Shown in pieces: positions 13,476 to 36,250 of a stretch of 64,000 nucleotides of DNA (the first letter of the stretch is position 1; every line of letters begins with the position of its first letter). The notes beneath the pieces are model-generated. The model saw only the letters and a list, made by a program, of their open reading frames with translations, had not been told where the DNA came from and ran no database searches. The DNA is taken from contig JAGLWT010000133.1 in the NCBI GenBank assembly GCA_023133295.1, positions 5,054 to 69,053 of the forward strand, in the 5' to 3' direction. The stretch comes from a bacterium (GTDB taxonomy: Bacteria; AUK180). Both the position numbers and the translations under genes were made by a program.

Positions 13476-13525
13476 TCTTTTTAATTTCTCTCTGCATCAA
13501 CCTTCAACCTGTAACTTTCAACTTT

Positions 13526-17515: not shown

Positions 17516-17571
17516 AGGATCCACCCGTTCTTTTTACACACCACACATCACACGCCAAAGGGTGGATCCAG
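17516..17571. terminator. Perfect 10-bp inverted repeat (GGATCCACCC ... GGGTGGATCC) with a 33-nt CA-rich loop, lying between convergent genes
   Basis: Seen directly at 17517-17526 and 17560-17569. No U-tract follows, so it is a stable hairpin candidate for a terminator or regulatory structure rather than a canonical intrinsic terminator. Confidence 0.35.
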
Positions 17572-17753
17572 TAAACCAAGGAACAAGGTTCAACGACCGA
17601 AACTTCAATTGACATTTTGTAGAGTTGCGAAGTATCATTCGGACATTATTTATAAGTAAATTGCATTTGCTCATAATTCAAGGAAATATTCCTGAAAGCA
17701 TGTTACTTTTTCACAAGTTCTCAGAAAAATAACAGAAAACTCACCAGTAAAGA

Positions 17754-19352: not shown

Positions 19353-19382
19353 TTGTTTCTCAATTTACCAATGGTTACGTAC

Positions 19383-19559
19383 CTAAATATTTAGAACCTC
19401 TGTAAGATTCTTTTTGTTTGGACGACTCATTATCTTTATTTTATTTAGCATCTCTGTTGAATGTTTTCTTGATTGCTTTAATGCTTTCTTTCCTTCCTTT
19501 GATAATATCCATTCTCGAGCTTTTTCCCCTAAATCCTTACTTGCAATTTTTCTCACCAT
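19383..19559 (-). CDS. Small basic hypothetical protein (58 aa), absent from the ORF track
   Basis: MVRKIASKDLGEKAREWILSKEGKKALKQSRKHSTEMLNKIKIMSRPNKKNLTEVLNI. A GAGGAA Shine-Dalgarno-like sequence sits 5 nt upstream of the ATG. Lies between the C39-like gene and the IS element. Confidence 0.2.
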   Translation of the reverse strand: MVRKIASKDLGEKAREWILSKEGKKALKQSRKHSTEMLNKIKIMSRPNKKNLTEVLNI

Positions 19560-19599
19560 AATTTCCTCAATTAATTTCCTAGTGAATTATAGATTAATT

Positions 19600-20792
19600 T
19601 ATTCAATTAGTCAAGCCTGTGATTGATGCCATAACATATTGGACTTTTGCGTCCGATCCATAAAGTTCTCCATATAATACTCCATCGGAGACATTTTTGC
19701 AAGGCCTGAATGTGGTTTCTCTGTATTGTACCATATGAGATATTCCATCAAGCCCACATTGAATTCCTCAACGTCCTCAAGCTCATCCAGATGAGGATAA
19801 ATATACTGACTGCTGATCGTTTTGTTATAGCTTTCGATATATGCGTTCATCTTAGGTCTTCTCGGGTAGTTGTAATAGTGTATCATTTCTGTATCGCTGA
19901 TATATTTTGCGAAGTACTTCATGAACTCACTGCCGTTATCCGTTTGTATTCTTTTGATCTCAAAGGGAAAAGCTCTTTGGAGTTTGATAAGAAAGTCTTT
20001 TGCCTGTGCGGAACTTTTGCTTCTGTATGCGAAGGCGAAAGCGATTCGTGTTTTAAGGTCAACAGCGGTAATGACATATCTTTTCAACCCGAAAACAAAG
20101 CGTTCCACCGTATCCATCTGAACAAGATCTCCGGGCTTCTCAGGCTGATATTTTCCTCTTCTGAGCTTCTTTTTCTTTTTTGATAGCCTTTTATTCACTT
20201 TCATCGTTTTTGCGTTATATGTGAGTTTTGTATGATGATCAGCAAGACGGCCTGATTCTTTCAGATCCCTGATCAACCTGGCTATCGTGGAAGTCGACAG
20301 CAGCTTTGATCCGTTTTCTCCACAATACTTGTCCAGTCCTTTTTTAACGGCATCCTGGCAAACTCCGGGGTGGGCACGGCGATATTCAAGAATGAATTGC
20401 ATGACTTCAGGCGGGCATTCTCTTTTTCTTCTGTTTTTCGGCGCACGGGAACCCGGAGCAAGGGCGATCAGCCTGCCGCTGGAATCTTCTAATTTCTTTT
20501 TCCATTGATAGAATGTGGACCTGGAAATATGGAAGGCATCCAGAGTAGCATCAAGACCATGACGGGAACGAAAGTTCAGTATCTCCAGACGGCGGTCTAT
20601 TTCTGCTTTTTCCGAATGACTTACATACTCGTGATAGTCTGATTGATACCATAACCTATTGGACTTTTGCTTCCGATCCATAGAGTTCTCCATATAATAC
20701 TCCATCAGAGACATTTTTACTCGCCCCGAAGGGAGTTTCTCCGTATTGCACCGTATGAGACATTCTGTCAAGTCGATATAGAATTTTCCCAA
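19600..20792 (-). mobile_element. IS481-family insertion sequence (DDE transposase), preceded by a duplicated copy of its own 3' end
   Basis: The ORF 19611-20792 encodes an N-terminal HTH (LDAFHISRSTFYQWKKK) and an rve DDE integrase core (RIQTDNGSEFMKYF ... YIESYNKTI ... LIWYNTEKPHSGL). A ~135-nt segment at 19612-19745 (the C-terminus) is repeated at ~85% identity at 20636-20772, in frame at the 5' end. Confidence 0.75.
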
Positions 20793-21324
20793 AATCTGTA
20801 GTTATTAGCAAACCCTTACTATCTCATATACAGGGACAAAATTGTCCCTTTTTGGAGGTTCCATGAAAACAACATCTTGTTTTTTACTTGCTGCCTCAGA
20901 GATAGCTGAGGCATTTTGCACAGCCACTAAAGTATATGGCTTTATTGAGAATTTTGGAGAAACGAAGGATAAACCGTTGCGAATATGGCTTGAGGCTCTT
21001 GAGATCATTTGTAGCTTAATCAGTCTCATCCCCGCCTATGAAGATTCAAAATAGCCGCAGTTCTGCTCTCAATACTTAAGGAGGTGTATCTTGTGAAATT
21101 TTGGCTAGATGTCTGATAGACAATCCTTATTTCCCCGGAGGAAATATTGTATTCATTGCATTCTTTCTTATGATGATTAAATTATTAGTGCGGGCGCCTT
21201 TAATGTTAGCAAACTGATTTAATAGATCTAGAGGAACATACTTATGCGACGGAATCCATCGCATCATTTATGCGGTATATCTGAAGAGAAATGTGCGATC
21301 TCTGAGATTGCAGTATTGAAAATA

Positions 21325-22905
21325 CTATGTTACCCACTTTAAATTGATATTCCAATCACCTTCATTATAATTTAAATGTTTATTTCCACTTGGATAAATG
21401 CAGATACTAGGCCAATTCGCACATATTTTGAATCTTGGGGAAGTATTAAATGGAAATTTTTGATTTCTTTCTTCAAGATCAGAATTCCGCACTTTCTCAA
21501 TCTTGATACCGCAGAAGTCCCCACTAATCAAATTTCTAAACAAGACTCCCTCTACTTCAAGCCAGTAAATATAGCCCCCTCCTCGTATATTCATACATAA
21601 TGGTAATGAAAACTTTCTAAATTCTTCTCCAATGTTTTTATCAGAAATCTTGTCTAAGACAAATCCCCAACCGTTGAATAAAGAAATATTTTTATTTAAT
21701 TGGCTAAGAATGCGTAATGACTGTAAATCCTCCTCACACGAATCCTTAAGTTCCCATAATGATGGATTCAAGCATTCAAAATGTTTAAGATCTTTTAAAT
21801 ATTTTACTAACCACCCATACGCCTGCAAATTGAATGAATCTGTGGGTAATGTGTACTTCTCAACTCCAAATTGAATTTTTGATTCTCCTATGCAGTTTTC
21901 TAAAAAAGCACACAATTTAGGATATTTCAATATTGGAGTGTCTGCTTTTTCATCTATTTGACTTCTTGTGGTATGAACATATTCACCATCATGTAACTCA
22001 CGATTTGATATTACTAATGCTAGTCCAGATTGATGGTAATATCCAAAATGTGTTTTAGTCCTTCTATACATAAAATCACATCCTACTTCTTTCTCGCCAT
22101 TATTAGAAGTTAATTTTACAATTTTTCCTGTTTCAAAACTCGGCGCAGTTATTAACACTTTTGTTGGGAGATATTCAAATGCAGTCAATAGGTCATCTTT
22201 GAGTGGTAATTTCTGTAACCTACGTGATATTAAAGCGGGCTTCCCAAAAGCAGCTTTCATTATAACTTCTTCAACTTTGGGGAGGTGAGTATTATATTGA
22301 TCTTCCCAATTAGCCAGTTGAATAATTGAATATGTTTGATCTGGATTTTGGATTATTTGTAATCTTGATTCAGGAATAGCATATTGCAAATAGTATTTTC
22401 GAATATTCATTTTTATATTATCCAAATATTCAGGTTCTTTCATTCTAGATATCTCATTTTTAATTATATTTATGTCGCTAATACAATTTTTAAAGCTTAT
22501 CCTTTTAGTTTCTCTATCGCTATTAATAAAATTTATAATTTCTTTAATAAAACCATCAGTTTGAAATCTAAAAGCTACACAGTAATCTTTTTTTGGGTGT
22601 TTATAAAGTAAAACCAATATGAAAGGAAAATCACAAGTTAAAAATAGTTTTGCATCAGCCTTATTAATTTCAGCATAAGGATTTTTTTTATTCAAAGTTG
22701 AACGAACAAAAAAGGCAACGAATTTCGGAGGAATTTTTTTTATTCCTGGTGAAATTTCTTTTCCGATTATTTGACATATAAAATCTATCCCAAAATCATT
22801 AGTTAATTTTTCTGCTAAAAGATTTAATTCACTAGATGCAAAATACCGAATATAATGTTCAGCATCAATCCCTAATTTTTGACTTGCAGTAATTTTCTTT
22901 TCCAT
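21325..22905 (-). CDS. DUF4365-like (restriction-endonuclease-fold) N-terminal domain protein with a ~400-aa C-terminal region of unknown function; candidate defence protein
   Basis: Start chosen at MEKKITASQ (22905), which has a perfect Shine-Dalgarno AAGGAGG 9 nt upstream. The N-terminal ~130 aa carry the DUF4365 pattern NDFGIDFICQII ... KFVAFFVRSTLNKKNPY ... KLFLTCDFPFILVLLYK (compare D-Y-G-I-D ... v.vQ.KS in DUF4365). AT-rich. Confidence 0.5.
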   Translation of the reverse strand: MEKKITASQKLGIDAEHYIRYFASSELNLLAEKLTNDFGIDFICQIIGKEISPGIKKIPPKFVAFFVRSTLNKKNPYAEINKADAKLFLTCDFPFILVLLYKHPKKDYCVAFRFQTDGFIKEIINFINSDRETKRISFKNCISDINIIKNEISRMKEPEYLDNIKMNIRKYYLQYAIPESRLQIIQNPDQTYSIIQLANWEDQYNTHLPKVEEVIMKAAFGKPALISRRLQKLPLKDDLLTAFEYLPTKVLITAPSFETGKIVKLTSNNGEKEVGCDFMYRRTKTHFGYYHQSGLALVISNRELHDGEYVHTTRSQIDEKADTPILKYPKLCAFLENCIGESKIQFGVEKYTLPTDSFNLQAYGWLVKYLKDLKHFECLNPSLWELKDSCEEDLQSLRILSQLNKNISLFNGWGFVLDKISDKNIGEEFRKFSLPLCMNIRGGGYIYWLEVEGVLFRNLISGDFCGIKIEKVRNSDLEERNQKFPFNTSPRFKICANWPSICIYPSGNKHLNYNEGDWNINLKWVT

Positions 22906-22974
22906 GATATTATTCCTCCTTTTAGTAGATTCGTCGCGATTGCTTTTTATACCCATAAGCACCTCCTTAAGTTA

Positions 22975-23334
22975 TTATTTGTTGTTTATGAATGATAATA
23001 AATTATCCAGCATCAGCCTTGCTTCCTCTATATCAACTGAGGTAACTTTTCTCAGGAAATTTATTGCCTTCAGGCATTCGAGGATCGCTTTCTCTTTGTC
23101 TTCCGCGGTCAGGATCTTTTCAAGACACTTGATCGCATTGGATATATGGTGACTTTCCTTTTTATCAACATCAAGGTCATTCAGCATTTCAATAATATCC
23201 GAGTTCAAGGTTTCAGGATCATATGATACCGACTCAGTGAACTCAAAAGGTTCTTCTTGTTCATAAATCTGCTCCTCAATATCTTCACTGTCGCTAACTG
23301 TAGAATCAGTCTCCTTTCTCATCGTTGCTTTCAC
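22975..23334 (-). CDS. Small acidic hypothetical protein (119 aa); its 5' end duplicates an internal segment of the upstream RHS gene
   Basis: Begins MKATMRKETDSTVSDSEDIEEQ... The first ~20 codons and the ~30 nt upstream (23300-23365) match RHS gene 25773-25830 (YNEDNRIVKATMRKET) before diverging. The remainder is highly acidic. Confidence 0.45.
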   Translation of the reverse strand: MKATMRKETDSTVSDSEDIEEQIYEQEEPFEFTESVSYDPETLNSDIIEMLNDLDVDKKESHHISNAIKCLEKILTAEDKEKAILECLKAINFLRKVTSVDIEEARLMLDNLLSFINNK

Positions 23335-23424
23335 TATCCCGTTATCTTCATTATACCTAAATAATCATATTCGTAATTACTCTCAATACCGTCCTCATCG
23401 ATCATTTTTACTCTATTCCCAGGA

Positions 23425-24690
23425 CTATCTATGTTTGTCGTAAAATTCTTCTAATTTATATATGCGACACTTGTCAGTTCCGAAGAGAATAACTTGTTCG
23501 TCGGTTGTCATCACCCGCTCAACCTTATAATCAAAATCAAAAACCTTTTCCTCGCCATCTTCGAGGCGGTAAGTATAAATTTTATTCTCTAAGATCAGGA
23601 AGATCCTATCTTTGTAGATAAAGTCCGCCTCGTCGCGAAAAGATACCGGCGGTATTTCTTTCTGCCATAAAAGCCTACCATTTTTCAAATTGAAAACTTC
23701 ATAGCATTGCTTGGTGATCTTGTTATAATGTGCAGTAGCAACTCCGGTCCATTCTTCATCCGCTTTAAATCTTCTTTGAATTATCTTATTTCCAATAATA
23801 TCTGTTGTTGCAATTCCGTCCTTGTTCTTGCTCGGATATAAGTCCAGCTTCTGTTTTCTGTCGAATAGGAGCTTCCGCTTTTTCAGATCATAGACTGAAA
23901 AATGGGCAATGGGCACTCCGTCTTTCTTCTTATCAGGAGATTGAATCACATGTACCAAGTAGTGTGAAATTACATCAATAATTCCCTCTCTGTGATTAGA
24001 GTAGCCAATTTTCTTTAAATACCTTTTTAACTTAGGATTTGCAAAGTTCCGGATTTCCCAATTTTCCATATCAATCATTGTGGTTTGAAAATCATTTCGG
24101 AATTGATACAACCATATTATTTCCTCATTTTCTACACCAAGCCGCCAATAAGCAACTAATTTCTGGAAAAGTATATTAAAATCAACATCGGTAATAATTA
24201 ATTTTGAATATAGATGAGAAAAAATAATTTTATCTAAATGTTTCTGATAACCACCGTAATAGCCGTTTAAGAGTTTTGAAATATGAGAAGTATTGTCCAA
24301 TTCAAATTTCTTTGTCTCTTCATTAAAGGTATAAATTTCTAAATTCGTTTGTCTTTCTATTCTCCCTTCTTTAGGTGGTATATACAAGATCCTATTAGAG
24401 TCTGCAAAATTAAAGTTACTGGTTTTCTTCCCCTTACTTCCCTTAAAGTCCATGAGGATATTTTGAGGCATGGATAACCTTATTCTTTCAGGAAGAAGAA
24501 TCCAGTTCTTGGATCCTTCAAAGTTGATTTTTACGAAAGCGGCTTGACTCTGATTCTGTGAAGTTATGGATCCTCTTGGCTGAACCAATTTATACTCACT
24601 ATAGGTAATTTCGTCATATGAGTATATGTTACATGTAATTAAAAAGATAATAACAAACAAAGGTATTCTCTTATTCATCTCTTTCCTCAT
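23425..24690 (-). CDS. Secreted hypothetical protein (~420 aa); candidate immunity or partner protein of the RHS toxin
   Basis: Signal peptide MNKRIPLFVIIFLITCNIYS. The ORF as drawn (to 24708) overlaps the RHS stop at 24671, suggesting translational coupling. No recognisable catalytic motif. Confidence 0.5.
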   Translation of the reverse strand: MRKEMNKRIPLFVIIFLITCNIYSYDEITYSEYKLVQPRGSITSQNQSQAAFVKINFEGSKNWILLPERIRLSMPQNILMDFKGSKGKKTSNFNFADSNRILYIPPKEGRIERQTNLEIYTFNEETKKFELDNTSHISKLLNGYYGGYQKHLDKIIFSHLYSKLIITDVDFNILFQKLVAYWRLGVENEEIIWLYQFRNDFQTTMIDMENWEIRNFANPKLKRYLKKIGYSNHREGIIDVISHYLVHVIQSPDKKKDGVPIAHFSVYDLKKRKLLFDRKQKLDLYPSKNKDGIATTDIIGNKIIQRRFKADEEWTGVATAHYNKITKQCYEVFNLKNGRLLWQKEIPPVSFRDEADFIYKDRIFLILENKIYTYRLEDGEEKVFDFDYKVERVMTTDEQVILFGTDKCRIYKLEEFYDKHR

Positions 24691-27600
24691 AGAATTCATC
24701 GCTATCAATTATAACAGGATTCTGTGGATCGTCAAGTTGAATATTTACCAATCCCTCTATTTCCTTAACGTATTTTTTATAGTGGTGAGTATTTTCACTC
24801 TCATTGGCTCTTGCTTCAGCTTCTAAACCTTCCATATTATCGAGATAATACCTACCAAAAATATTTCGCATCTCTTTCGTAATCTCAGCTCGCTTTTCTT
24901 CATCTGACAAATCATCACGAGCCTGTATATCTTGAATTATCCTGAAAATCTGATTCTCATACTCTTCCAAATACTTAATAAACTGAATTACATGCGTTAA
25001 TTCATGTGAAGCTGTTGATTTCATTTCCTTTTGAAGAGTAAATATATAAAAGTCAAAAACGATTTCCCCTTCAGTATTAACTTGTGCTGTGAAATCAGTT
25101 TGCCCAAGCATCTTCGAATTGGAATCAAATATCTCCCCGATGGAACTTTCTCCGGTTAAAGCTAACTCAACTGTGTTATCGGAAAGATAAATATCTGCAT
25201 AATCCCTGTATAAAGAATATACTAGATATTCTCGCAATCCATCAAGATCAATGTATCTCAAAGGATTGTTCAATACATATATCCACCTGTTCAGACTCTG
25301 CGGGTTTTTCAAATTTAGGCTTGCCCTGTCCTTGCTCATCCACCTCCCGATCCTCTGGTCCAGATATCTCGCATTGGCATAATGGAGGTTAGTTTCCTCA
25401 TCATACTCATGTCCTGTGTACCCGTCCTTGTTCTTGTACTTCTCTTTCGCCTTGATGATATTCCCGAACGGGCCGTACTTATACGTATTCTCGATGCTTC
25501 CCATGGTGTCCGTTACCACTACAGGAGAACCTAAGACATCATAGTGGTAGTAGTGAGTGCCGTTTTTGTCCTTCTTCATGATCTTCTTGTTTCCAAAGTA
25601 ATAATTCACTTCACGATCTCCCGCCTCCAATTCGGCAAGAACTTTACCATTCATTCCCCGGAAATAGAAACCTTCCGTTTTTTCCCCATTGATGAGTTGC
25701 TTTAATTTATACACTCTAAGACCTCTGAAATCATATTGATAGTTTAGCTCAAGCGTTGCTGCCTTTTCAACTCCAGTCTCCTTTCTCATCGTTGCCTTCA
25801 CAATCCGGTTATCTTCATTATACACGAAATCAACGGAGTTTTGCAAGGTATCATTACCCAAAGTCTCCTTTCTTATTATGTTGCTGAAGTCATCATATGT
25901 ATAATTATGGCGCTTTTTAACATTGTCAACCCATGACAAGAGTCTGTTGGAAGTGTGTGCAATATTGTATGAATGTGTGTGAAAAGGACTCTGATACGAT
26001 AGGCGATTTCCGGTAGAATCATAGTTGTACTCCGTATTGAAAGGCGTTTTGTCATCATTGAACCAGGAATACATGGGACCGGTAACATTGTTGAGTCTCC
26101 CGAGTCGGTCGTATCCGTATTCCGTTTCGATATTATCTTCATCGATAAGTTTAATTCTGTTACCGTTTTTATCGTACTCATATGAATTTGTGTATATAAT
26201 ATTATTGTTACCTAAATTCATAATATCAATTTTTAATATTTCATTTAGTGGAGAATAGGCGTATTCTGTTGTCTCTGAAATTCCCGTAGGATACTTCGTT
26301 ACTGTACAACTTGAAAGCCTGCCGAAAGTATCGAAATGATTCTCAACACTAAAAAGCGGAATTCTAAGCCCCCCTAAAGATTCAGAGAAGCCGGATTTCA
26401 ATTTCCCTGAAAACTCTTCATAGGCGAAACCACTCTTTTGATCCAGGATGCCGTCATTTTCAAAATCGTACCAGAGATTGTTTAGCCGGTTTCGATTATT
26501 ATCATATCCATATGTGAATGACATCATATTTCCATTTAGGTCTATGGTCTTCTTGGTTATCCTGTCCAGACCGTCATATTCGTAGGTGTAAGTATTTCCG
26601 TTTAGATCATCAGTTTCCTTTAATACATTCCCCATTAAATCATAGTTTATTGTTTTTATATTTTGTGTTATTTGTGAAATGCTACTCTCGATTTTGCCCA
26701 GACGACCGAGTGTATCATAACTATAGTTTTTTGCTACCTGGGCAGAATTTTGATATCCTAATACATTGCCCGCAAGATTATTTTCATATTCTTCCCAACT
26801 CCCATCAGATTCAATTTTATTCACTAGCTGCGATAGGTAGTTATATTGAAATTGTGACTGATTACCCCGGCTATCAGTTACCAGAGTAAGGTTTCCAAGT
26901 GCATCGTAGTCATACGAAGTTTCATAAATCGCAGCATCATTGTACTCTTTGACCATAATCAGTCCATCTTCAACATCATAGAGATATTCCATATTCGGAT
27001 CTCCTGATTTATCAGCTTTGGGGCTCCAAATTTTCTCACTTCTGAAAACTCCATTTTCATTGTTAAAGTAGAGATGCTCTGATTTTGAAATCCGAATATC
27101 ACCGTCCTTTGATAATCTGGTTTCAATAACCCTGTCAATTTGATCATATTTGAATTCAGTTGAAATTCCTGAAGGCGAGATCTTGCGGATCAAATTATCA
27201 AAATCGTTGTATTCGTATCTTGTCTCAAAGAATTCCGAGGGATCTAAGGCTGTATTACCATTCTTATCGAAGAATTGCCACTCCTTCTCAATCCTAAAAA
27301 AGCTGTCAAAGTGGTATTTCGCGTTTGCCACTACTGCTCCGTCAAGGTATTCCGTGGAGGCTGTAATTGTTCTAAGTGTATCGTCATAACCATATAAGCT
27401 CTGTGGAAGATCTTGCTTGCCTACCTTGGTTAATCTTCCATAAATATCATATTCGTATGCAGTATTTCTTCCCATGGGATCAATATAGGTTTCTAAAAAC
27501 AATTCATCATTGTAATCGGCAAAAGCCATTAGAGTATAGGCGCCATCGATTTCTCCATCCACATATTTGTTCGAGTCTACTTTTACTCCGGTCAGAAGGG

Positions 27601-29821
27601 AGTTCCCGAAAGAGTATCCACTCAGAGTATCCCATGAGAAATCAACCCGCGGCCAATAGTGATAATCATATGCCGCCGAAGAATTGGCTTCTGTATAACC
27701 GTAATTAAGGAATACCCTACGCCTTTCACTCCCATTTATGTATTGATCTATCATCAAAGGTTTACCGTACCAATCCACAGCGACTACTTCTGACAGCAAT
27801 GTCCATGAGTTGTCCTCTGTATTGAATAAGTGCTCCCTTACCGGAACTCCGGATGGATCAAATTCTTTTTTAAAATGGCTGACCAGGGAAGCACTCTGGT
27901 AAAGTTTTTTCTCTGATCGTGCAATTATATTCGTAAAAAAGCTATAAGGCAGATCTTCTACAACCCTGATGTCTTGGTAGTAATTATATTCACGTATCTT
28001 CCCAAGTGGGAGATACTCTTTACTTAAGTATCCAAGAGTATTATATTCGTACGAAAATTCCACAGGAACATCATCCATAGTCTTTGTGATCTTGACGGGC
28101 CTGTAAATTTCATCTCTATTTGAATATACGCCAGATTCGTTAAGGAAAGGAGATATAATGTTAAGTTTCTCGTATTCATAGTCAGTCTTATATCCATTTG
28201 GTAGTCGATCTCGTATCTTTAATACAAGATTATTCCATTTCCAATCAGACGGGACAAGGTAAATGTATTCCCCTCCATTTTCTTGGACATCCAAGTAATT
28301 CAGATATATCCAATGATCAATATTGCTGTGTATCAAATACCGGGATTGATAAATACGCTGATCTACAATGGCTCCATCCACTATATCATTAACAATCTTC
28401 TCAACCATGTGTAATCTCCAGTCAGGTTCATTCGAATCCTGCTGTTGATATATGTATGATATGGTTGGAGGGAAATTGTCAGCTGAAACATTATTTTCAC
28501 CGATCCTTTTAATTGATTTTAGAGATCTAAACTTAAAGTCATTGACTCTCGTTATCCAACCAGAATATTGCATGGGGTTCCAGTTGGAATTATACTCTTC
28601 AAATTCAAACCGCAATTTCTCCCCACTTGTGGAGATATAGTCCCAGTCATTTGGATCTAATCTAAATCCACAAATTTGTTCACCATACTTATAAATGAAT
28701 TCGGGATTTGAAAGAAAAGATTTTGTATATGAATTTAAAATACTAAAGCTCACAGAGCCCGTATTCGCCCCGGATAAATAATTACTCTCATAGGCAGAAT
28801 AATCCATCAATGAAGATTCAAATGACTCGCCGACAAAGAATGAAATTATGTCTGCAATGGAATCATAACTGATTAATCTATATGTCTTCCCCGATACTTC
28901 AAGAGTACTGCCACTTACATTTACCGAGTATAACGGCAAATAACTATCCCCTGCACCAGCCTCCTTTGAGTATACAGTGAATGATTCATCTCCGGGTTCA
29001 TCTTCCGAATACTTCATCATCTTTCCATTCGAAAAGTAGAATTCAGGTTTTGTCTCATTATCGGGATCATGAGGAGATGATTTACTTAAGATATTGTATG
29101 GAGACTCCTGATTAGATGTAAGGCTTAGATACTTCAGATCGTTGTCTGGAGAGTCAATGGTTTGATTATAATAATCTCTTACTATTCTTTTACAAATGGC
29201 CCAACTGCCGACATCATTTACATAACCGGATACTTCGTGGATATCAACATCCTCCTTTATATACTCACACCTTCGTGTATAATATTCATGATGAGAATGA
29301 GGATTTGCGAAATTTGCTTCATATACTCCATTTTTTTCTAATTTGAAAATCTTGACGGCTACTCCATCAATACTGAGAATCCAAGCGTGTTCATATGAGC
29401 ATTGATAATCAATTGATCCACGATACGTCATCTTGGGTGGAGCCTCGAAAGAATCGCTTTCCAGCGGCCAGTTGTTATTAATATTCTTGACTAGCTTCAA
29501 TTTAACATCCGCTGTACTTCCATCCTTCAAAGGAAATGTCTTTAGGGTACGAGAAAGAATAACATTCCCTGAAAAATCATCCACAGAGCATGAAAAATCA
29601 ACGGTGCTGTAAGTGCTTTTATCAAATGATACGGTATTGAAATAAGATGCAATATCAAAGATCCCACTATCCTCTTCATCTCCGGCGGACATTGTACGCA
29701 TTATTGTATTTGAAGCTTCATCTTTATTCAGTTCAGAAGAAAGTCTAGAATTCGTTTCAGAGAATGTCCTCATCGAAAAAAGAATACATGCTATTAAAAA
29801 GAAGAATTTGACTGATTTCAT
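24671..29821 (-). CDS. RHS/YD-repeat polymorphic toxin (1716 aa) with Sec signal peptide and a C-terminal HExxH metallopeptidase-like toxin domain
   Basis: Signal peptide MKSVKFFFLIACILFSMRTFS. Many YD repeats (YEYDIYGRLTKV, YDYDALGNLTLV, YTYEYDGLDRITK, YGYDRLGRLNNV, YDVLGSPVVV). RHS core end GHEYDEETNLHYANARYLDQRIGRWMSKD ... NRWIYVLNNPLRYIDLDGL (the DPxGL-type boundary). A 187-aa tip follows, containing HELTHV. Confidence 0.85.
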   Translation of the reverse strand: MKSVKFFFLIACILFSMRTFSETNSRLSSELNKDEASNTIMRTMSAGDEEDSGIFDIASYFNTVSFDKSTYSTVDFSCSVDDFSGNVILSRTLKTFPLKDGSTADVKLKLVKNINNNWPLESDSFEAPPKMTYRGSIDYQCSYEHAWILSIDGVAVKIFKLEKNGVYEANFANPHSHHEYYTRRCEYIKEDVDIHEVSGYVNDVGSWAICKRIVRDYYNQTIDSPDNDLKYLSLTSNQESPYNILSKSSPHDPDNETKPEFYFSNGKMMKYSEDEPGDESFTVYSKEAGAGDSYLPLYSVNVSGSTLEVSGKTYRLISYDSIADIISFFVGESFESSLMDYSAYESNYLSGANTGSVSFSILNSYTKSFLSNPEFIYKYGEQICGFRLDPNDWDYISTSGEKLRFEFEEYNSNWNPMQYSGWITRVNDFKFRSLKSIKRIGENNVSADNFPPTISYIYQQQDSNEPDWRLHMVEKIVNDIVDGAIVDQRIYQSRYLIHSNIDHWIYLNYLDVQENGGEYIYLVPSDWKWNNLVLKIRDRLPNGYKTDYEYEKLNIISPFLNESGVYSNRDEIYRPVKITKTMDDVPVEFSYEYNTLGYLSKEYLPLGKIREYNYYQDIRVVEDLPYSFFTNIIARSEKKLYQSASLVSHFKKEFDPSGVPVREHLFNTEDNSWTLLSEVVAVDWYGKPLMIDQYINGSERRRVFLNYGYTEANSSAAYDYHYWPRVDFSWDTLSGYSFGNSLLTGVKVDSNKYVDGEIDGAYTLMAFADYNDELFLETYIDPMGRNTAYEYDIYGRLTKVGKQDLPQSLYGYDDTLRTITASTEYLDGAVVANAKYHFDSFFRIEKEWQFFDKNGNTALDPSEFFETRYEYNDFDNLIRKISPSGISTEFKYDQIDRVIETRLSKDGDIRISKSEHLYFNNENGVFRSEKIWSPKADKSGDPNMEYLYDVEDGLIMVKEYNDAAIYETSYDYDALGNLTLVTDSRGNQSQFQYNYLSQLVNKIESDGSWEEYENNLAGNVLGYQNSAQVAKNYSYDTLGRLGKIESSISQITQNIKTINYDLMGNVLKETDDLNGNTYTYEYDGLDRITKKTIDLNGNMMSFTYGYDNNRNRLNNLWYDFENDGILDQKSGFAYEEFSGKLKSGFSESLGGLRIPLFSVENHFDTFGRLSSCTVTKYPTGISETTEYAYSPLNEILKIDIMNLGNNNIIYTNSYEYDKNGNRIKLIDEDNIETEYGYDRLGRLNNVTGPMYSWFNDDKTPFNTEYNYDSTGNRLSYQSPFHTHSYNIAHTSNRLLSWVDNVKKRHNYTYDDFSNIIRKETLGNDTLQNSVDFVYNEDNRIVKATMRKETGVEKAATLELNYQYDFRGLRVYKLKQLINGEKTEGFYFRGMNGKVLAELEAGDREVNYYFGNKKIMKKDKNGTHYYHYDVLGSPVVVTDTMGSIENTYKYGPFGNIIKAKEKYKNKDGYTGHEYDEETNLHYANARYLDQRIGRWMSKDRASLNLKNPQSLNRWIYVLNNPLRYIDLDGLREYLVYSLYRDYADIYLSDNTVELALTGESSIGEIFDSNSKMLGQTDFTAQVNTEGEIVFDFYIFTLQKEMKSTASHELTHVIQFIKYLEEYENQIFRIIQDIQARDDLSDEEKRAEITKEMRNIFGRYYLDNMEGLEAEARANESENTHHYKKYVKEIEGLVNIQLDDPQNPVIIDSDEFYEERDE
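24674..25234 (-). other. Variable C-terminal toxin tip of the RHS protein (HExxH zinc-metallopeptidase-like), downstream of the DPxGL-type core boundary
   Basis: Residues after ...YIDLDGL: REYLVYSLYRDYADIYL ... STASHELTHVIQFIKYLEEYENQ ... The HExxH motif is followed by a Glu-rich helix. Confidence 0.55.
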
Positions 29822-30411
29822 TCTGCAACCCCTTCCAAGAGGAATTCAATCCGGTTCATGTTGAAGCTCGCTGTCCTTATAAACCGATATTCCGGATAAT
29901 TTTCCACTATCTCTTGATAGATTGCGTGCGCTGCTTTTAGATTACCGATATTTTCATAGGATTTAGCTTTATTGTGTTTGACTTCGGCAATATATTTGCT
30001 GCCGGGATATGCTGCTTCAAAGGCTTGATACTCTGAAATTGCTTCTGAATATCTAAGTGCAAAGAAGTAGCAATCGGCTACCCATTTCGCTGCTGTATCA
30101 GCGGTGGCTAAGATATTACAATTCGCCGCCTGTCTAAATGTATTAATTGCCTTCTCGATGGGATATTGCCTGAATTGTACTTTTAAGGCATTTTCCTTGT
30201 CCCAAAGATAGTAAAGGGCAATTCCTTTCTCTAGAAGAATCTCTGACATTGAATCCCCTGAAGATGAAATAAGGAGCTCGCACATGGAGACCGCCTCTTC
30301 AAATTTCCCTTTTGAGATGAGTTCTTTAACATCTGCAAGGCTCGTGTCAGCTGATACAATGCCGCAGAATAAAACAAAGATACAAATAATATATGTAAAT
30401 CGTTTTTTCAT
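29818..30411 (-). CDS. TPR-repeat exported protein/lipoprotein, translationally coupled to the RHS gene
   Basis: 197 aa. Signal peptide MKKRFTYIICIFVLFCGIVSA. TPR-like helical repeats (EAVSMCELLI, AINTFRQAANCN, AISEYQAFEAAYPGSKYIAE, AHAIYQEIVENYPEY). ATGA overlaps at both ends (30408-30411 and 29818-29821). Confidence 0.6.
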   Translation of the reverse strand: MKKRFTYIICIFVLFCGIVSADTSLADVKELISKGKFEEAVSMCELLISSSGDSMSEILLEKGIALYYLWDKENALKVQFRQYPIEKAINTFRQAANCNILATADTAAKWVADCYFFALRYSEAISEYQAFEAAYPGSKYIAEVKHNKAKSYENIGNLKAAHAIYQEIVENYPEYRFIRTASFNMNRIEFLLEGVAE

Positions 30412-33400
30412 TTTGTCACCTCCTTGTACATGGATTCATAATAAAGAAGAAGTCCATCAAGAAGCCTTCTGCTCCTATCGGTATCAATATCTTCGATTGC
30501 GACAAGGTTGTTGATGGTTTTTACAATATCCAGTATTGCCTTGTCAAGCTCTTCAATGTTCACAAAAGAGTCATCTAAGCCCTCAAATGTTTTTATTGCT
30601 TTTCTGATCCGGTTTGAATATTCAGTCTCGATTGAGATTTCGTATAATATCTCGGAAATAGCGGCTTTTATTTCTGAAATGTCCATTGCCATATAGATTG
30701 TCCTTTCAATCTCTTCCGTGTCAAACCAGATAACTGTGGCTTTGTAGGATGTTCTAGTGATAAAATTAAGCTCTCCCGAATAATCAGGCAGTCTTATTAA
30801 ATACTTCACGGTAACTTCCTTTTTTCCCTCTGGGAATTCAAAAGTGATAGAACCGTCTTCCACCACCCCTCCGTCATACACCTTAATAATTTCGACATTT
30901 TCTGGTAATATCTCAGTGATCCTAATAGGCACGGTAATATCCGCGATAACTTTGGTTTCAAGGGCGATTACCATCCCCGGAAGGTGTTCCTCTGGAATTC
31001 CGGGGGTTATCGCCCTGATATTGTCTGAAACGATCTCGGAAAGGTTGACATTTACTGCATTATACAATAGATCAAAACCATAGTATGCTGTCTTTCCCCA
31101 TCCATAGGGATTCAGTGTAATCACCGGTGAAGCAGGATTATTCGAAACAGATATAGTTCCAACAGAGACTAAATTAGAAGAAATGCCAAGCAGTTCAAGT
31201 CTTTGAACCCAACCCTCGATTGGGATGATTCCCGCGCTGCTTATACTCGTATCAGTTATGTCAATGAAATAATCATTTTCTGGATATTCCCCTATGGATT
31301 TCAAATTGAACATCCCAGGAGAACCCCCTTCAGAAATCATATGGATATATCCCGAAGATATCAGCCCAAAGCCACTGTAAACATGCTCCCGCATTTCTTC
31401 TGCGGTATGTCCGGGAAGATTATCATCTTTCTCATTGATCCAATAGACATTAAACCGGCCTGTTCTCATTTCATCAACAAAGTCGTTTATATTGTCAACT
31501 ATCGCATGGTCCGCAAGATTATTAAGCAGCATAAAATTATCAAGGTCCTGAGCCCCCTCACCATTGAGAATAAGTACCCTTTCAAAAGCAGTTCCATTAA
31601 CCGAAGTTTCAACTGCGGGGGCTAGGATTACCTCTTTGATATATACTTCGCTCTCATTGTCAACATTGTCTGTCGTCTTATACGAAATGATATACCTACC
31701 CGGTGCACTGAAAGGAAGCGTAAATGCATCTAAATAGTTCATCCAACCAGTATCATTCTGATCTGATACGCTTTCGATCCTGTATTGATAGTATTTCACT
31801 CCACTTTGACTATCGCTTCCCGAAAAAGTGAAAAAAGTTCCAAGATATACCAGAGTATTATTCTCGATTTGCCTAAAGGGAGAGTATGCCAAACTCACAT
31901 GTGGAGCTGTTTGATCTACAATGAACATTTGAGTTTCAGATATTTCCCTATTACATGCAGAATCGATACTTAAAAATGATAGAGTTATATCACTCTGGTC
32001 AAACTCTGATCCAGAAATAGCAGAAGTGTATTCGAGTGATTCAGAATTGTTAATGGAGTACTCGATTTTGTTCACACCAGATTGATAGAGGCCGCTATCG
32101 AAAGCACTTATAGAGATATTGGAATCCTCTGATATATATGTTAACCCATTATTTATATACTGGCTTCCTTCAATGTCAATATTAGAAATCGGTGCTACGG
32201 TATCGATCATAAATTGAGAATAATAGAACTCGCTTTGAAGTCCTTCTACATCAGTCCCCTGTAATTTAAATGCGTATAACCCATCGGGTAGTGTTTCGCC
32301 GATGTTTGAGCTTGCATCCCATATATGTGAAGATATGCCATCAACATTTGAATAGAATTGTGTCTTAAATACTTCTTCGCCGGAGTCACTTATCACGGCA
32401 AGGTCAATCAATGAAAATTCTGAAACGGAAAAAGTGATTTCAATAAAATCAAGGCAGTTATTGGAATCAGGACTGAGATAATAAGAACTTATACTTAAAT
32501 CAGCAATCTCGGGTTGAGTATAATCGCCAAAGTATCCTGAAAGAACATAGTATCCTTCAAGCGATTGTATTTCTACTGTTAATACATTGCTCACCGTGTC
32601 TCTATGGACCCTGGTTTCGTCCGGCTGGGCAACATGCCACATATTTGAGTCGGTATTGTATGCCCATACCTGCAGCTTACTTTCATCTAGCCCCTGAACC
32701 TTCTCATCAGAATAGGTAAAGGCAATTTCAATAAAATCGGTGAAATACTCTTGACCTGAAAGAAGTCTAATATCGTACACATTTGATAAAATCGGTTCGA
32801 TGTCATCTTGATTGGTCCCTTCTGATGGAATACTCTGCTGGGGAACAGAACTTATCATCAAAGTGTCAAATGTTGAAAGAATATCATTCTCGTTAACAGT
32901 GGCTATAACATTGCTTTCAATATTTTCGACATTACCAGGAACATTTCCTGCGATATTCTGACATTCGGAATATTCGGTTAGTGAGATTATGTTTAAATCA
33001 GCTCTGTTTTCAGAAATATATTGCGAGATGATTATTTTGTTTTCCGAATATGAATAAAATGGGAATGACGGAATGCCATTAGAGTCGGAAACTGAAAGAA
33101 TATTATTGGCGAAAAGGTCGTCCTCCCCACCCATTGAATCTACTCTCCCCAAAGAGATATTCATGTAATCGGGGGTTCCAGGTAATAATTTGGGTTGGGT
33201 ATTTCCAAAGGGATCTTCTCTCAAAGAAAATGCAAATCTACAATCAGTACCCTCAATGAAATTCCCACCGGAATAATAAATATACCTGCTATTATTATCC
33301 CAATCCATAAGCATCACAGAGTCGTAGTTGGAATTTGGGAACCTAGTTAACTCAATAGTTTGAGCATATTCCCCATAAGGGTCTAAATAAGCCACTTTTA

Positions 33401-35765
33401 CTCCAAGGGAAAAAGAATCAGCATCCAAAAAAGCTATTGCACTTGAATCATGTGAAATAACCGGTTGCCAACAAGTATTAATGCATTCTATCGTTGAATA
33501 CTCATCTATATAATACTGGTTTTGTGACCCATCAGGCATTATCAATATTTGAATTCTGTTACTAGGTTCAGCTATCGAGTCTCTAGCAGTTCCATGAAAG
33601 GCTAATAATGTACCGTCATCACTCCAGTCAATTCCATATATATATCCGAATATTTCAAATTGCCAAATAGTACTAGCGCTATTGACATCGTAGCATTTAA
33701 TGACGGTTTTATTTTCATCATTGCGGTAAATGTATGCCAAGGTATCTGAATTTCCCGCCCAAACGAAATCATCCCCCCATACTATATCGGGAAGAATTGA
33801 AATATTAGAGTTTTCTGTATCTACAATATGAATGTTGAAGCTCCTTAAAAATGCTACATATTTCCCTGACTTGGATATTTTATTAAACTTTGTAGGGCTG
33901 GGGTTCCACGAAGAATAAGGAGGTAATACAGAAGGTCTGGGGATACTGGAGACGAGTTGATAATAATTCGTACCATCGGTATTTAATCGATAAATACCAG
34001 AGTTTTCACTTAAATCATACGGACAAGTATTTCCCGGAATTTGAGCTACACTACATTTACATCCTCCTGAATATTCAAAATAATACAGCTGCGAACCCTT
34101 AATGAATGGCTGAAATGCGTAGGAATTTGATTCGAATTCCACGCGCTCAATACCTGAAATCGCAACTTTAGTTCCGGTTTCAATTTTAAATCTACCCGAC
34201 AAAGACTTTGAAGCAATTGAATAAATGTCTACAACATCAATATGGTAAAAGTATTCGCCATCCGGATAAATATTTCCATATTGATCACGCCCATCCCAAC
34301 TGATAACAACCTCATCTGAAGAAACAACTTCAGAGAATACAATTGTCCCATCTATATTTTTGATCTTAAAAATCCATGGGGATATCAGAGTTAAGTTCCC
34401 AACGCATGCGTCAAAATTAATCATTTCATTACAATTATCATCATTTGGAGAAAGAACATCACTTGAGACTACAATATTGACATCAATTGTGTTAATCTCA
34501 ATTTCTTTCACTTGACTGGCCAACATATTCCCTTGAAGATCCTCATATATAATTTCAATCAGATATTCACCTTCTGGAATAGTTTCTGTGGTAATAGTAC
34601 CTTCCAGCAAATAATCATTAAATGGTTTCGCGGAAAAACTTGAATAATATGTCTCGATAACAATTCCATTCAGATCCTTTAAGTGTATTTGTAACCTCGC
34701 CTCACTCTTTGAATAAAAAGAAGTGGAAAAAGTAATCTCGGCATATTTATGGGAATAATAATTTCTATTGAGCTCGAATTTAATTATTCTGAATGAATCA
34801 GATGGAACATGGTGAAATTCCCCTGCAATAGACCTCTCATTGTTGGAAATTTCGTAAATTTTTGAGTTATTATTAGTGTATATTGGTGTAGTTCCCAAGT
34901 GACTTGTTGAAAGAAATGGAGATGAAAATACATCGTCCAAACTTGACCAAATACTCTTATCAAGACCCATTTGCCAAATAGCGGAAGAAACACTGCTAAC
35001 ATCAGTAAAAGTAGGCCCGTTATATGCGATCAATTCAAATTGCCCCTGATTATTAACAAAAATCTCTGTTTGAAAATTCTCAGTAATAACTGAAATATCC
35101 TTATTTCCATCGCCATTGTAATCAAATACACCTGTTATTTCCTTTATACTACTGTTTAAATCCTGATCAAGATCCGAATTACAATTGAAACCAGTGGATG
35201 AGCTGCTGTATATGGTCAGGTTCCCTGTTTGGGAAAGAAATAAGAGCCAATAACTTGTATCGCCAGAAAAAAGACCAATGGTGGATTCCACACTTGGATT
35301 TAAAATAGGAATATCAATTTCCTGCACTATGCAAGGGTTAAGAATATCTTCATATACCTGAAACTTAGATCCCGACAAAAATCCAAATTCCAACCTTTGA
35401 TTATTGTTATAGTCGTCAAATAACTGTATATCCGAATCTACTGATTGAACGCCTGCCAACAACATTTGGAATATGAGGTCAAAATCATCGTCAAGAACAT
35501 TGTAATAATACTTGCCCTCGCAATTTGATAAAAAAATGATCTCAAATTCGTCATTTTCTTCTACTATTTCTAAATTTGATATGATTTGTTCTCCGTAACG
35601 AGTCAAATATGTGCCTAATAAGTACATATCTTTAAATCCAATAACGCTTCCCTGGCCTTCTTCCACACAGAAAACATAGTCCTGATATTGAACGGGAGCC
35701 CACTTAATATGCGCATAACTTGTTAATGCAATAATACACATCACCATTATAAAGGCCTTTTTCAT
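30408..35765 (-). CDS. Giant exported surface protein (~1785 aa) with FlgD-Ig-like domains, a TolB-like beta-propeller region and a C-terminal ~400-aa region of unknown fold; no T9SS CTD
   Basis: Start taken at MKKAFIMVMCIIALTSYA, with Shine-Dalgarno AAGGAGA 9 nt upstream. FlgD-Ig-like segments (LSPNDDNCNEMINFD ... ISWDGRDQYGNIYPDGEYFYHIDV; LSPDSNNCLDFIEITF ... LPDGLYAFKLQGTD). TolB-like repeats (KSGKYVAFLRSFNIHIVD, WSDDGTLLAFHGTARD). The C-terminus ends ...LLLYYESMYKEVTK with no sorting signal. Confidence 0.7.
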   Translation of the reverse strand: MKKAFIMVMCIIALTSYAHIKWAPVQYQDYVFCVEEGQGSVIGFKDMYLLGTYLTRYGEQIISNLEIVEENDEFEIIFLSNCEGKYYYNVLDDDFDLIFQMLLAGVQSVDSDIQLFDDYNNNQRLEFGFLSGSKFQVYEDILNPCIVQEIDIPILNPSVESTIGLFSGDTSYWLLFLSQTGNLTIYSSSSTGFNCNSDLDQDLNSSIKEITGVFDYNGDGNKDISVITENFQTEIFVNNQGQFELIAYNGPTFTDVSSVSSAIWQMGLDKSIWSSLDDVFSSPFLSTSHLGTTPIYTNNNSKIYEISNNERSIAGEFHHVPSDSFRIIKFELNRNYYSHKYAEITFSTSFYSKSEARLQIHLKDLNGIVIETYYSSFSAKPFNDYLLEGTITTETIPEGEYLIEIIYEDLQGNMLASQVKEIEINTIDVNIVVSSDVLSPNDDNCNEMINFDACVGNLTLISPWIFKIKNIDGTIVFSEVVSSDEVVISWDGRDQYGNIYPDGEYFYHIDVVDIYSIASKSLSGRFKIETGTKVAISGIERVEFESNSYAFQPFIKGSQLYYFEYSGGCKCSVAQIPGNTCPYDLSENSGIYRLNTDGTNYYQLVSSIPRPSVLPPYSSWNPSPTKFNKISKSGKYVAFLRSFNIHIVDTENSNISILPDIVWGDDFVWAGNSDTLAYIYRNDENKTVIKCYDVNSASTIWQFEIFGYIYGIDWSDDGTLLAFHGTARDSIAEPSNRIQILIMPDGSQNQYYIDEYSTIECINTCWQPVISHDSSAIAFLDADSFSLGVKVAYLDPYGEYAQTIELTRFPNSNYDSVMLMDWDNNSRYIYYSGGNFIEGTDCRFAFSLREDPFGNTQPKLLPGTPDYMNISLGRVDSMGGEDDLFANNILSVSDSNGIPSFPFYSYSENKIIISQYISENRADLNIISLTEYSECQNIAGNVPGNVENIESNVIATVNENDILSTFDTLMISSVPQQSIPSEGTNQDDIEPILSNVYDIRLLSGQEYFTDFIEIAFTYSDEKVQGLDESKLQVWAYNTDSNMWHVAQPDETRVHRDTVSNVLTVEIQSLEGYYVLSGYFGDYTQPEIADLSISSYYLSPDSNNCLDFIEITFSVSEFSLIDLAVISDSGEEVFKTQFYSNVDGISSHIWDASSNIGETLPDGLYAFKLQGTDVEGLQSEFYYSQFMIDTVAPISNIDIEGSQYINNGLTYISEDSNISISAFDSGLYQSGVNKIEYSINNSESLEYTSAISGSEFDQSDITLSFLSIDSACNREISETQMFIVDQTAPHVSLAYSPFRQIENNTLVYLGTFFTFSGSDSQSGVKYYQYRIESVSDQNDTGWMNYLDAFTLPFSAPGRYIISYKTTDNVDNESEVYIKEVILAPAVETSVNGTAFERVLILNGEGAQDLDNFMLLNNLADHAIVDNINDFVDEMRTGRFNVYWINEKDDNLPGHTAEEMREHVYSGFGLISSGYIHMISEGGSPGMFNLKSIGEYPENDYFIDITDTSISSAGIIPIEGWVQRLELLGISSNLVSVGTISVSNNPASPVITLNPYGWGKTAYYGFDLLYNAVNVNLSEIVSDNIRAITPGIPEEHLPGMVIALETKVIADITVPIRITEILPENVEIIKVYDGGVVEDGSITFEFPEGKKEVTVKYLIRLPDYSGELNFITRTSYKATVIWFDTEEIERTIYMAMDISEIKAAISEILYEISIETEYSNRIRKAIKTFEGLDDSFVNIEELDKAILDIVKTINNLVAIEDIDTDRSRRLLDGLLLYYESMYKEVTK

Positions 35766-36250
35766 GAGCATATCTCCTTTCTTGTGATTATGATATAATC
35801 CCGAAATAGAATCATTTCATCCCCTTGCCAGCTATATCGGAAGTTTATCTTTTCTCTCAATAATCCCTATTGGACATGATGCAAAGCCTTGTTGCGACTA
35901 CACATTTTAAAATTAAAAAGCTATCACATAACGAAAGCGTTTCATGCAGGAGCAGCCTTGAAGGTTGAAATCATCAATTGCATTCTTCGGTTACCCTTCC
36001 TTTGTGAGGAATTCTCTAACTAATTGTAATAGAAATATGCCAAAATGTCAAGTATATGATTATACCTCTTAGCCCATGTGGCATGTCGCGGTGATGGGGA
36101 GAAAGAGGAGATACTACACATTCAAAAAATGCAGTACTGAGTACAAAGGTGAGGTTATAAAGCAACCGATAAGCTGTTATTTCGTACACCCTTTTAATAT
36201 AGTTCTCTTTTCTTTCATTTTTCGTAAATATTTGGTAAAATCTTTAGACA

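Follow-up and report, generated by a model that had tools for sequence, protein, structure and literature searches.

A putative Sec-type RHS/YD-shell toxin gene in a predicted operon with genes for a giant exported protein and a TPR protein on a strain-specific genomic island

Introduction

Polymorphic toxins of the RHS type that start with a signal peptide form the 'T2SS/Sec-dependent' class (T2SS, type II secretion system) of Zhang et al. 2012, for which RHS repeats and several HExxH Tox-MPTase tips are listed (PMC3482391). More recently, Raoelijaona et al. 2026 described bacterial teneurin-like proteins (TLPs), which are YD-shell toxins that are exported by Sec and have a downstream immunity gene (PMC13018210). 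In Gram-negatives these TLPs are lipoproteins processed by signal peptidase II (SPII; predicted for those of Myxococcota), with 'no obvious delivery machinery' (PMC13018210). How Sec-type RHS/YD cocoons cross the envelope of diderms and gain access to their targets is stated in the same paper to be an open question. Here we describe a four-gene locus in a 64-kb stretch of DNA from an uncultured hydrothermal bacterium (GCA_023133295.1, contig JAGLWT010000133.1, positions 5,054 to 69,053; the whole stretch is referred to as the window). In this locus a gene for a putative RHS toxin with a Sec signal peptide follows the genes for a giant exported protein and a tetratricopeptide repeat (TPR) protein, and precedes a gene for a candidate immunity protein. 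An operon in which a Sec-type toxin is coupled to a pair of exported partners offers a concrete candidate for addressing the delivery question.

An earlier sequence-only reading of this DNA had proposed that the RHS protein might use an undescribed surface-display or contact-dependent delivery route. Our analysis, which we follow with moderate confidence, suggests that the locus encodes a divergent Sec-type RHS/YD-shell polymorphic toxin, independent of a type VI secretion system (T6SS), on a horizontally acquired island. We infer that it is co-expressed with the giant and TPR proteins, which would act as an adhesin-like partner and a periplasmic helper, respectively.

Results

The RHS protein

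Profile searches with the RHS protein gave matches to RHS_repeat (PF05593, E=1.7e-29) and YD_repeat (TIGR01643, E=2.5e-26), followed by an Rhs_assc_core match at aa 1449-1529. The first detectable repeats were found near aa 778, and divergent repeats probably extend further upstream of the detectable YD shell. Among PDB sequences, the best matches were T6SS Rhs effectors, TccC cores of Tc toxins and a bacterial teneurin-like protein. When the core was aligned to that of RhsP (8h8a), ARY..GR, SKD and IDLDG of the window protein came to lie opposite ARYYDP..GR, QQDP and IDPTG. The arginine and both catalytic aspartate positions are kept in this alignment, and both prolines are replaced. Because these three catalytic positions are conserved, autoproteolysis of the RHS protein is plausible, and cleavage by its core is predicted.

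We then modelled aa 517-1716 with AlphaFold2 (AF2), using an alignment of 11 sequences. The model had a mean predicted local distance difference test score (pLDDT) of 50.9 and contained beta-hairpin repeats that reached a pLDDT of 70-88 in parts; the repeats alone are credible, and neither the plug region nor the tip can be interpreted. A Foldseek search with this model returned Rhs cores as top matches (E~1e-34), with a global TM-score of just 0.15 because the model is not closed. Structure prediction, which had been suggested along with the sequence-only reading, therefore recovered an Rhs shell for this protein, and the part on the giant protein failed, as its C-terminal 407 aa, modelled without an alignment, gave an unusable pLDDT of 35.7.

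The N-terminus of the RHS protein reads directly as a Sec signal peptide, MKSVKFFFLIACILFSMRTFS, with E as the first residue after the cleavage site. It includes FLIAC at Cys12, the only canonical lipobox string among the four proteins. Since this cysteine sits unusually near the N-terminus, the signal may be of the signal peptidase I (SPI) or the SPII type. Profile scans of the protein found no PAAR/DUF4280, DUF6531, SpvB/TcdB, TPS, LXG, WXG, FN-plug or NHL family and no sorting tail of a type IX secretion system (T9SS). The earlier claim that a Sec signal peptide takes the place of a PAAR-type leader was borne out by these scans and by the N-terminus itself. In an exhaustive phmmer search of 1.84 billion cluster representatives, aa 1-770 had no relative at E<=0.001 except itself; moreover, the N-terminal region showed no Pfam family above noise and no match on plasmids (tblastn).

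Operon structure and export signals

All four genes lie head to tail on the minus strand in the order giant (1787 aa; 1785 aa according to public gene callers), TPR, RHS and 417-aa gene (Table 1). The junctions were read from the sequence. The stop codon of the giant gene and the start codon of the TPR gene share an ATGA at 30408-30411, with AAGGAGG ahead, and a second ATGA at 29818-29821 joins the TPR stop to the RHS start. A purine-rich, Shine-Dalgarno-like stretch precedes both ATGA junctions. At the third junction, the RHS stop codon TAA (24671-24673) and an ATG at 24678 produce an 8-nt overlap, ATGAATAA, and GAGGAAAGAG is found ahead of the ATG. As public gene callers use this ATG, it is most likely the start of the fourth gene, in preference to a TTG at 24708. 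The two ATGA overlaps and the 8-nt overlap confirm the arrangement of four coupled genes that had been described before, and as read from the sequence they support a single translationally coupled operon.

The N-terminus of each of the four proteins combines a positively charged n-region with a hydrophobic h-region behind it, and we read these as signal peptides. With respect to the fourth product, the previous assignment as an exported protein stands, whereas its start and length are most likely to be corrected to the ATG at 24678 and 417 aa.

The tip, the 417-aa protein and a cassette scar

The C-terminal tip of the RHS protein begins after DLDGL (aa 1525-1529) and carries an HELTH motif. 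All its family matches are sub-threshold (SprT-like, E=0.0096; Peptidase_M8, E=0.086), and no PDB sequence match was found. The 417-aa protein has a relaxed lipobox, LITC, at Cys16; no relative was found for it among families, PDB sequences, plasmids (tblastn) or JGI metagenome contigs. A BamB-like or PQQ-propeller identity, prompted by motifs such as 'NGRLLWQKE', was dropped as it had no statistical support.

Within the RHS gene we found a 50-nt direct repeat whose partner lies beyond the 417-aa gene. The two copies are 94% identical and 2467 nt apart, and what they enclose is exactly the last part of the shell, the core, the tip and the 417-aa gene. Furthermore, tblastx revealed decayed rhs shell remnants beyond the 417-aa gene. 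One of these, DSPGNRVKMIDEDGIESNYEYDYLG, has 64% aa identity to RHS aa 1217-1241 (nt 26173-26099), and another, FRYNEDNGIVKATMRKET, has 89% aa identity to RHS aa 1332-1349 (nt 25828-25775). In Rhs loci, displaced 3' fragments and tips are left behind once an incoming cassette of tip and immunity gene has recombined in. The repeat and the remnants support the idea that the RHS tip and the 417-aa gene were swapped in as a toxin/immunity cassette. Because they bracket both, they also provide the best available evidence that the 417-aa protein and the tip belong together.

The giant and TPR proteins

The giant protein contains FlgD_ig/CHU_C modules at aa 437-513 and around aa 1098-1182, OmpL47-type barrels at aa 1187-1377 and a weak FG-GAP-like match at aa 217-262. 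The FlgD-Ig-like modules had been recognised in the sequence-only reading, and they hold up. The TolB-like, beta-propeller label of that reading does not, as its support is faint (a faint precomputed Tricorn_2nd match and, at best, Beta-prop_EML_2 at E=0.03). Among 5.8 billion proteins, no full-length homologue besides the giant itself was found. Other matches cover at most 20% of it, via the Ig modules, and belong mostly to giant OmpA-family proteins of Spirochaetota. No PDB sequence matched the giant, and searches of Pfam, NCBIfam and PDB sequences confirmed that its C-terminal ~400 aa are without a match. The protein has no hydrophobic segments and no match to an outer-membrane protein, TcA (VRP1, TcA_TcB_BD) or TpsB family, in line with the earlier statement that it is not TcA-like.

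A copy of the giant's helical tail was found on the far side of the 417-aa gene. The C-terminal 70 aa of a small open reading frame (ORF) product, p115, resemble the tail (BLASTP, 30% identity over 105 columns, pairwise E=3e-11). We also considered p115 as a second immunity protein. This was not retained as the primary reading because the ORF starts inside an rhs remnant and looks chimeric.

The TPR protein matches TPR_6, TPR_14 and TPR_2, with weak YbgF/CpoB/BamD/PorW-like scores far below the cut-offs. No significant PDB sequence match and no close relative in JGI metagenome contigs was found. Its N-terminus, MKKRFTYIICIFVLFCGIVSA, is followed by D and contains no lipobox of the form [LVI][ASTVI][GAS]C, and the cleavage site (VSA before D) resembles that of signal peptidase I. 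The protein had been called a TPR lipoprotein; its TPR part is supported by Pfam, and the lipoprotein part is unsupported because the lipobox is missing and the site is SPI-like.

The genomic island

In blastn, a contig of a relative, known from a metagenome-assembled genome (MAG; JAGLGN010000005.1, here L006), follows the window collinearly at a nucleotide identity of 91-94%, with two exceptions. Window positions 17557-36208 are replaced in L006 by ~22 bp, and positions 5767-13559 by ~16 bp. The first of these segments is an island that carries, on the minus strand, the giant, TPR, RHS and 417-aa (p417) genes, p115, p543, an IS481 transposase gene and p532. No tRNA gene, integrase or flanking direct repeats were found at its boundaries. 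The four module genes have a GC content of 0.34-0.40 (0.37-0.40 for the giant, TPR and RHS genes), compared to 0.30 for p543 and p532, in which the GC content at third codon positions (GC3) is 0.22. Since the module is absent from the collinear L006, since the GC content of the island differs from the backbone and since its genes are not uniform in GC, we conclude that the module is accessory and horizontally acquired and that the island is a mosaic.

Neither p543 nor p532 has a match in Pfam, NCBIfam or PADLOC, and the other island ORFs were also blank in PADLOC. Both probably come from another source than the toxin module, and p543 is probably island cargo unrelated to it. At the 5' end of the IS481 transposase gene there is a 146-nt copy of its 3' end (19620-19765 versus 20640-20785, 84% identical), and this repeat suggests the remnant of a second, adjacent insertion sequence copy.

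Table 1. Features of the RHS locus and its island (window coordinates).
Feature	Position	Strand	Remarks
Promoter-like site TTGACA-17-TACAAT	36023..36051	-	11/12 consensus matches, ~250 nt upstream of the giant gene; consensus scan only
Giant exported multidomain protein	30408..35771	-	signal peptide aa 1-20; orphan C-terminus aa 1381-1787
Helical C-terminal tail of giant (aa 1684-1777)	30441..30722	-	helices in low-confidence AF2 model; paralogue in p115
Exported TPR protein, 197 aa	29818..30411	-	SPI-type signal peptide; ATGA overlaps at both ends
Putative RHS/YD-shell polymorphic toxin	24671..29821	-	1716 aa; Pfam, NCBIfam, PDB-sequence and Foldseek matches
RHS signal peptide (aa 1-21) and orphan N-terminal region (aa 22-770)	27512..29821	-	
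Detectable YD-repeat shell (aa 771-1448)	25478..27511	-	RHS_repeat/YD_repeat matches, AF2, Foldseek
RHS-associated core (aa 1449-1529)	25235..25477	-	TIGR03696, E=1.6e-18; autoprotease Asp residues conserved (SKDRAS, IDLDGL)
C-terminal tip (aa 1530-1716, 187 aa)	24674..25234	-	HELTH aa 1606-1610 (nt 24992-25006); candidate zincin-type metallopeptidase toxin
50-nt direct repeat within RHS gene	25774..25823	-	encodes YNEDNRIVKATMRKET, aa 1334-1349; partner 23307-23356
Exported 417-aa protein, pI 9.1 (basic)	23425..24678	-	candidate periplasmic immunity protein
Decayed, frameshifted rhs shell remnants	23308..23429	-	tblastx; directly after the 417-aa stop codon
p115, acidic 115-aa chimeric ORF	22975..23322	-	5' end is an rhs remnant, C-terminus giant-tail-like; no signal peptide
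p543, cytoplasmic orphan, 543 aa	21325..22956	-	GC 0.305
IS481-family transposase	19611..20792	-	NF033577, E=2.5e-49; rve domain
p532, cytoplasmic orphan, 532 aa, far island end	17754..19352	-	GC 0.303
Strain-specific genomic island, 18,652 bp	17557..36208	.	GC 0.362 versus 0.431 in shared backbone

Relatives of the RHS protein and search for T6SS genes

The nearest RHS shells share ~25% identity over ~44% of the protein. We examined loci of distant RHS relatives for the pair of TPR and giant genes and found it in none of five. In L003/L004, an RHS protein with DUF4280-PAAR is encoded beside a VgrG gene. Two RHS proteins, P0063 and P0070, have DUF6531 at the N-terminus and a T9SS sorting tail (Por_Secre_tail) at the C-terminus; the P0070 gene lies 33 bp downstream of a gene for a CARDB/PKD protein of >2000 aa (L005; GCA_965188455.1, CBCZEB010000276.1, 2-11877), which is not homologous to the giant of the window. 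A lectin/PKD RHS protein is found behind agr-like genes in L013, and L014 and L015 also lack the pair. The conservation of the giant/TPR/RHS triplet, proposed as a check in the sequence-only reading, thus receives no comparative support, because the databases searched contain no homologue of either the giant or the N-terminal region of the RHS protein and the triad occurs in no examined locus; the island as a whole is absent from L006. That reading took RHS toxins of diderms to be usually T6SS cargo or Tc components; that they belong to these two kinds only is contradicted by these T9SS-tailed relatives as well as by the Sec-type class (PMC3482391) and the TLPs (PMC13018210).

Furthermore, we scanned 56 window ORFs with Pfam, that is, all ORFs of at least 120 aa except three short ones nested in larger genes. 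No T6SS component (Hcp, VgrG, TssB/C or PAAR) was found among them or in the 10 kb past the right end of the window, and the earlier observation of a 64-kb region free of T6SS genes is upheld by this blank scan.

Host and other genes of the window

In the window an ABC ATPase gene adjoins rpoN-hpf-hprK; from its position we take it to be lptB. There are also a gene for a KdsC-like HAD hydrolase and an O-antigen-type polysaccharide cluster. Based on these three features, we consider the host a diderm with lipopolysaccharide (LPS). At 90% identity, the housekeeping proteins of the window cluster with proteins from MAGs, and one of the latter carries the label Candidatus Calescamantes (Calescibacteriota).

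The second segment that is absent from L006 (5767-13559; 7.8 kb, GC 0.386) contains three genes. One of these encodes a 1772-aa exported protein (5823-11141) with clostripain C11, three P-domains and PD40, as well as a C-terminal T9SS-type sorting tail slightly below the cut-off. The others are TraB-like and PEMT-like. A repeat of ~43 nt, at 5724-5766 and 11418-11460, flanks the C11 gene.

Beside the RHS island, a DUF3160 protein (14086-16047) has full-length relatives with 29-30% identity in MAGs of Desulfurococcales archaea (L010-L012). Two bacterial MAGs and one archaeal MAG among its matches carry AUK / PB_MBMC sample naming, and the pattern may reflect inter-domain transfer. Among the housekeeping genes, 60416-61180 encodes a metallo-beta-lactamase-fold protein with a precomputed Anti-Pycsar_Apyc1 match, and with PDEase_II and Lactamase_B matches.

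Discussion

How a Sec-type toxin at this locus might work

We favour the reading that the locus encodes a Sec-type RHS/YD-shell toxin with its own immunity protein. The four proteins would be made in coupled synthesis from one mRNA, possibly started at the promoter-like site at 36051-36023, and all four would be exported by Sec. The shell would close around the tip, and the core would cleave after DLDGL. The tip may be a zincin-like peptidase that hits a target in the envelope or periplasm of neighbouring cells; since the immunity candidate is exported, such a location of the target is implied. The weakest steps are the way to the surface and the roles of the giant and TPR proteins. A general route, either the T2SS or a lipoprotein-type exposure via the FLIAC Cys12, might bring the RHS protein to the surface or into the medium. 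The giant, with its Ig-like, barrel and FG-GAP-like modules, might be an adhesin that joins producer and target or tethers the shell, and the TPR protein might be a periplasmic chaperone or scaffold.

Several observations weigh against this reading. The tip reaches the threshold of no curated family, and 417 aa is large for an immunity protein. Moreover, for the 417-aa protein, the tip, RHS aa 1-770 and the C-terminus of the giant there is no homologue that would back an assignment, and the AF2 models of the RHS protein and of the giant C-terminus both have a low pLDDT.

Are the giant and TPR proteins linked to the toxin?

A part in delivery for the giant and TPR proteins is suggested only by translational coupling and gene order in one genome. 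One could instead regard the two as an adhesin or surface-layer pair that is independent of the toxin and shares a transcript by chance with an RHS/immunity cassette, the latter having entered a mosaic island downstream of the pair. RHS loci as such are hotspots of recombination, and the island is indeed mosaic: it contains the IS481 element and the remnant of a second copy, genes of GC 0.30 beside those of 0.37-0.40, rhs remnants and a chimeric ORF. In addition, the second strain-specific giant surface protein of the window (5823-11141) has no toxin attached. However, TPR and RHS genes that had recently come together at random would hardly be expected to share a 4-nt ATGA overlap, and the giant gene, the TPR gene and the part of the RHS gene for aa 1-1332 are alike in both GC and GC3. 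The chimeric p115, which joins an rhs remnant to a copy of the giant tail, also hints at a shared history. We therefore consider such independence unlikely, though it deserves some weight.

The opposite possibility is that the giant and TPR proteins form a dedicated, undescribed apparatus for display or contact-dependent delivery, which would be a fourth route beside the T6SS, Tc toxins and the type VII secretion system (T7SS). This would agree with the ATGA overlaps that couple the giant, TPR and RHS genes, with the export signals of all three products and with the similar GC content of three genes that arrived on one island. The TPR protein is weakly like the envelope scaffolds YbgF/CpoB, BamD and PorW, and in the unrelated L005 a gene for a very large CARDB/PKD protein likewise lies closely upstream of an RHS gene. 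The delivery of Sec-exported YD-shell toxins is, moreover, unexplained (PMC13018210). On the other hand, the arrangement was seen just once: the protein searches returned no full-length homologue of the giant, the five examined loci of RHS relatives all lack the TPR and giant pair, and the giant of L005 is not homologous to that of the window. Furthermore, no membrane-embedded or pore-forming module is predicted in the giant, and its detectable domains are generic adhesin modules. Taken together, a dedicated apparatus is improbable. An extended version, in which the orphan 750-aa N-terminus of the RHS protein is a docking module and the helical tail of the giant, with p115 as its free paralogue, is an interaction element, is to be doubted just as strongly, if not more.

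That the locus is a disguised Tc (ABC) toxin, with a TcB/TcC-like cocoon on a TcA-like giant, or T6SS cargo with a T6SS elsewhere in the genome, is so improbable that it can be set aside, as was also held in the sequence-only reading: the RHS core does align with TccC3, YenC2 and T6SS Rhs cores, but the RHS protein has no SpvB, TcdB_mid, FG-GAP propeller, PAAR, DUF4280 or DUF6531 match, the giant has no TcA family match, no T6SS gene was found in the window or in the 10 kb past its right end, and the cleavable Sec signal peptide of the RHS protein is incompatible with cytoplasmic loading onto a T6SS spike.

Significance of the locus

As it stands, the Sec-type toxin reading adds one more divergent polymorphic-toxin island, from an uncultured, thermophile-associated lineage that is possibly Calescibacteriota. 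If a dedicated apparatus were true, it would explain the delivery of T6SS-independent YD-shell toxins, both Sec-type RHS proteins and TLPs. The value of the locus lies, in addition, in the clean pair of insertion and empty site that delimits the island, in a cassette-replacement scar of textbook-like form from outside the Proteobacteria, namely from a little-known phylum, and in the orphan domains RHS aa 22-770 and giant aa 1381-1787 together with the 417-aa protein.

Comparison with known systems

With Tc toxins the locus shares an RHS cocoon with an autoproteolytic core (predicted for the window protein) and an adjacent gene for a very large partner. The order of the genes and the presence of a TPR gene do not fit, however, and neither PF03534, PF12256 nor PF12255 was detected in the RHS sequence, nor a TcA family in the giant. 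The T6SS Rhs effectors RhsA (7q97), RhsP (8h8a), Tse5 (8cp6) and Tse15 (8uy4) are the best matches of the shell and core in sequence and 3Di searches, and the autoprotease residues are conserved in them as in the window protein. These effectors have PAAR, a prePAAR transmembrane segment or a VgrG-binding N-terminus, whereas the window protein has a signal peptide instead, and no VgrG, Hcp, Eag or adaptor genes are found near it.

Among the nearest shell relatives are the T9SS-tailed proteins P0063 and P0070, which are likewise T6SS-independent RHS proteins of diderms, with ~25% identity over the shell. Directly upstream of P0070, a beta-rich protein of >2000 aa is encoded. These relatives carry DUF6531 and Por_Secre_tail, but both domains are missing from the window protein, the C-terminus of which is a toxin-like tip. 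In the giant, the CHU_C/FlgD_ig modules are internal, and the protein ends in a helical tail that is an orphan. We rejected export by the T9SS for both the RHS protein and the giant, as neither has a terminal sorting domain.

WapA of Bacillus and Streptococcus is a Sec-dependent YD-repeat toxin for contact-dependent inhibition in monoderms. It shows the same succession of Sec signal peptide, YD repeats, polymorphic tip and downstream immunity gene, and it is contact-dependent and T6SS-independent. WapA is anchored to the monoderm cell wall, whereas the host of the window has an outer membrane, judging from the context of LPS-export and rpoN genes.

TLPs share with the window protein Sec export, which is predicted for the latter, and a YD shell in a diderm; their polymorphic C-terminal domain and the immunity gene immediately downstream have putative counterparts in the tip and the 417-aa gene. 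They also have a DPxG-type autoproteolytic core and no dedicated secretion machine known, and the window core aligns with 9pt5 and 9ifo (E~5e-6). However, FN-plug, NHL and TIP were not detected by Pfam in RHS aa 1-800, where no FN-plug, NHL or TEN match was found even at E<=1 and where the AF2 model stays below a pLDDT of 50 at aa 517-766. T6SS-type Rhs cores outscore TLPs in both sequence and 3Di searches, and TLP loci have not been reported with TPR or giant partners.

The Sec/T2SS-type RHS toxins of Zhang et al. 2012 come closest in their overall plan. With a signal peptide and no leader domain of type V, VI or VII secretion systems or of PVC, the window protein falls within this type, and it is alike in its repeats, its core and a C-terminal HExxH tip, here a candidate toxin domain. 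The locus is also alike in the downstream candidate immunity gene and in the remnants of cassette replacement. It differs in that the tip matches no curated family, the 750-aa region after the signal peptide is an orphan and the immunity candidate is large and exported. Moreover, the upstream coupling to the giant and TPR genes is outside the described pattern. The type of toxin is therefore already known; what is unusual here is its coupling to an exported giant and an exported TPR partner.

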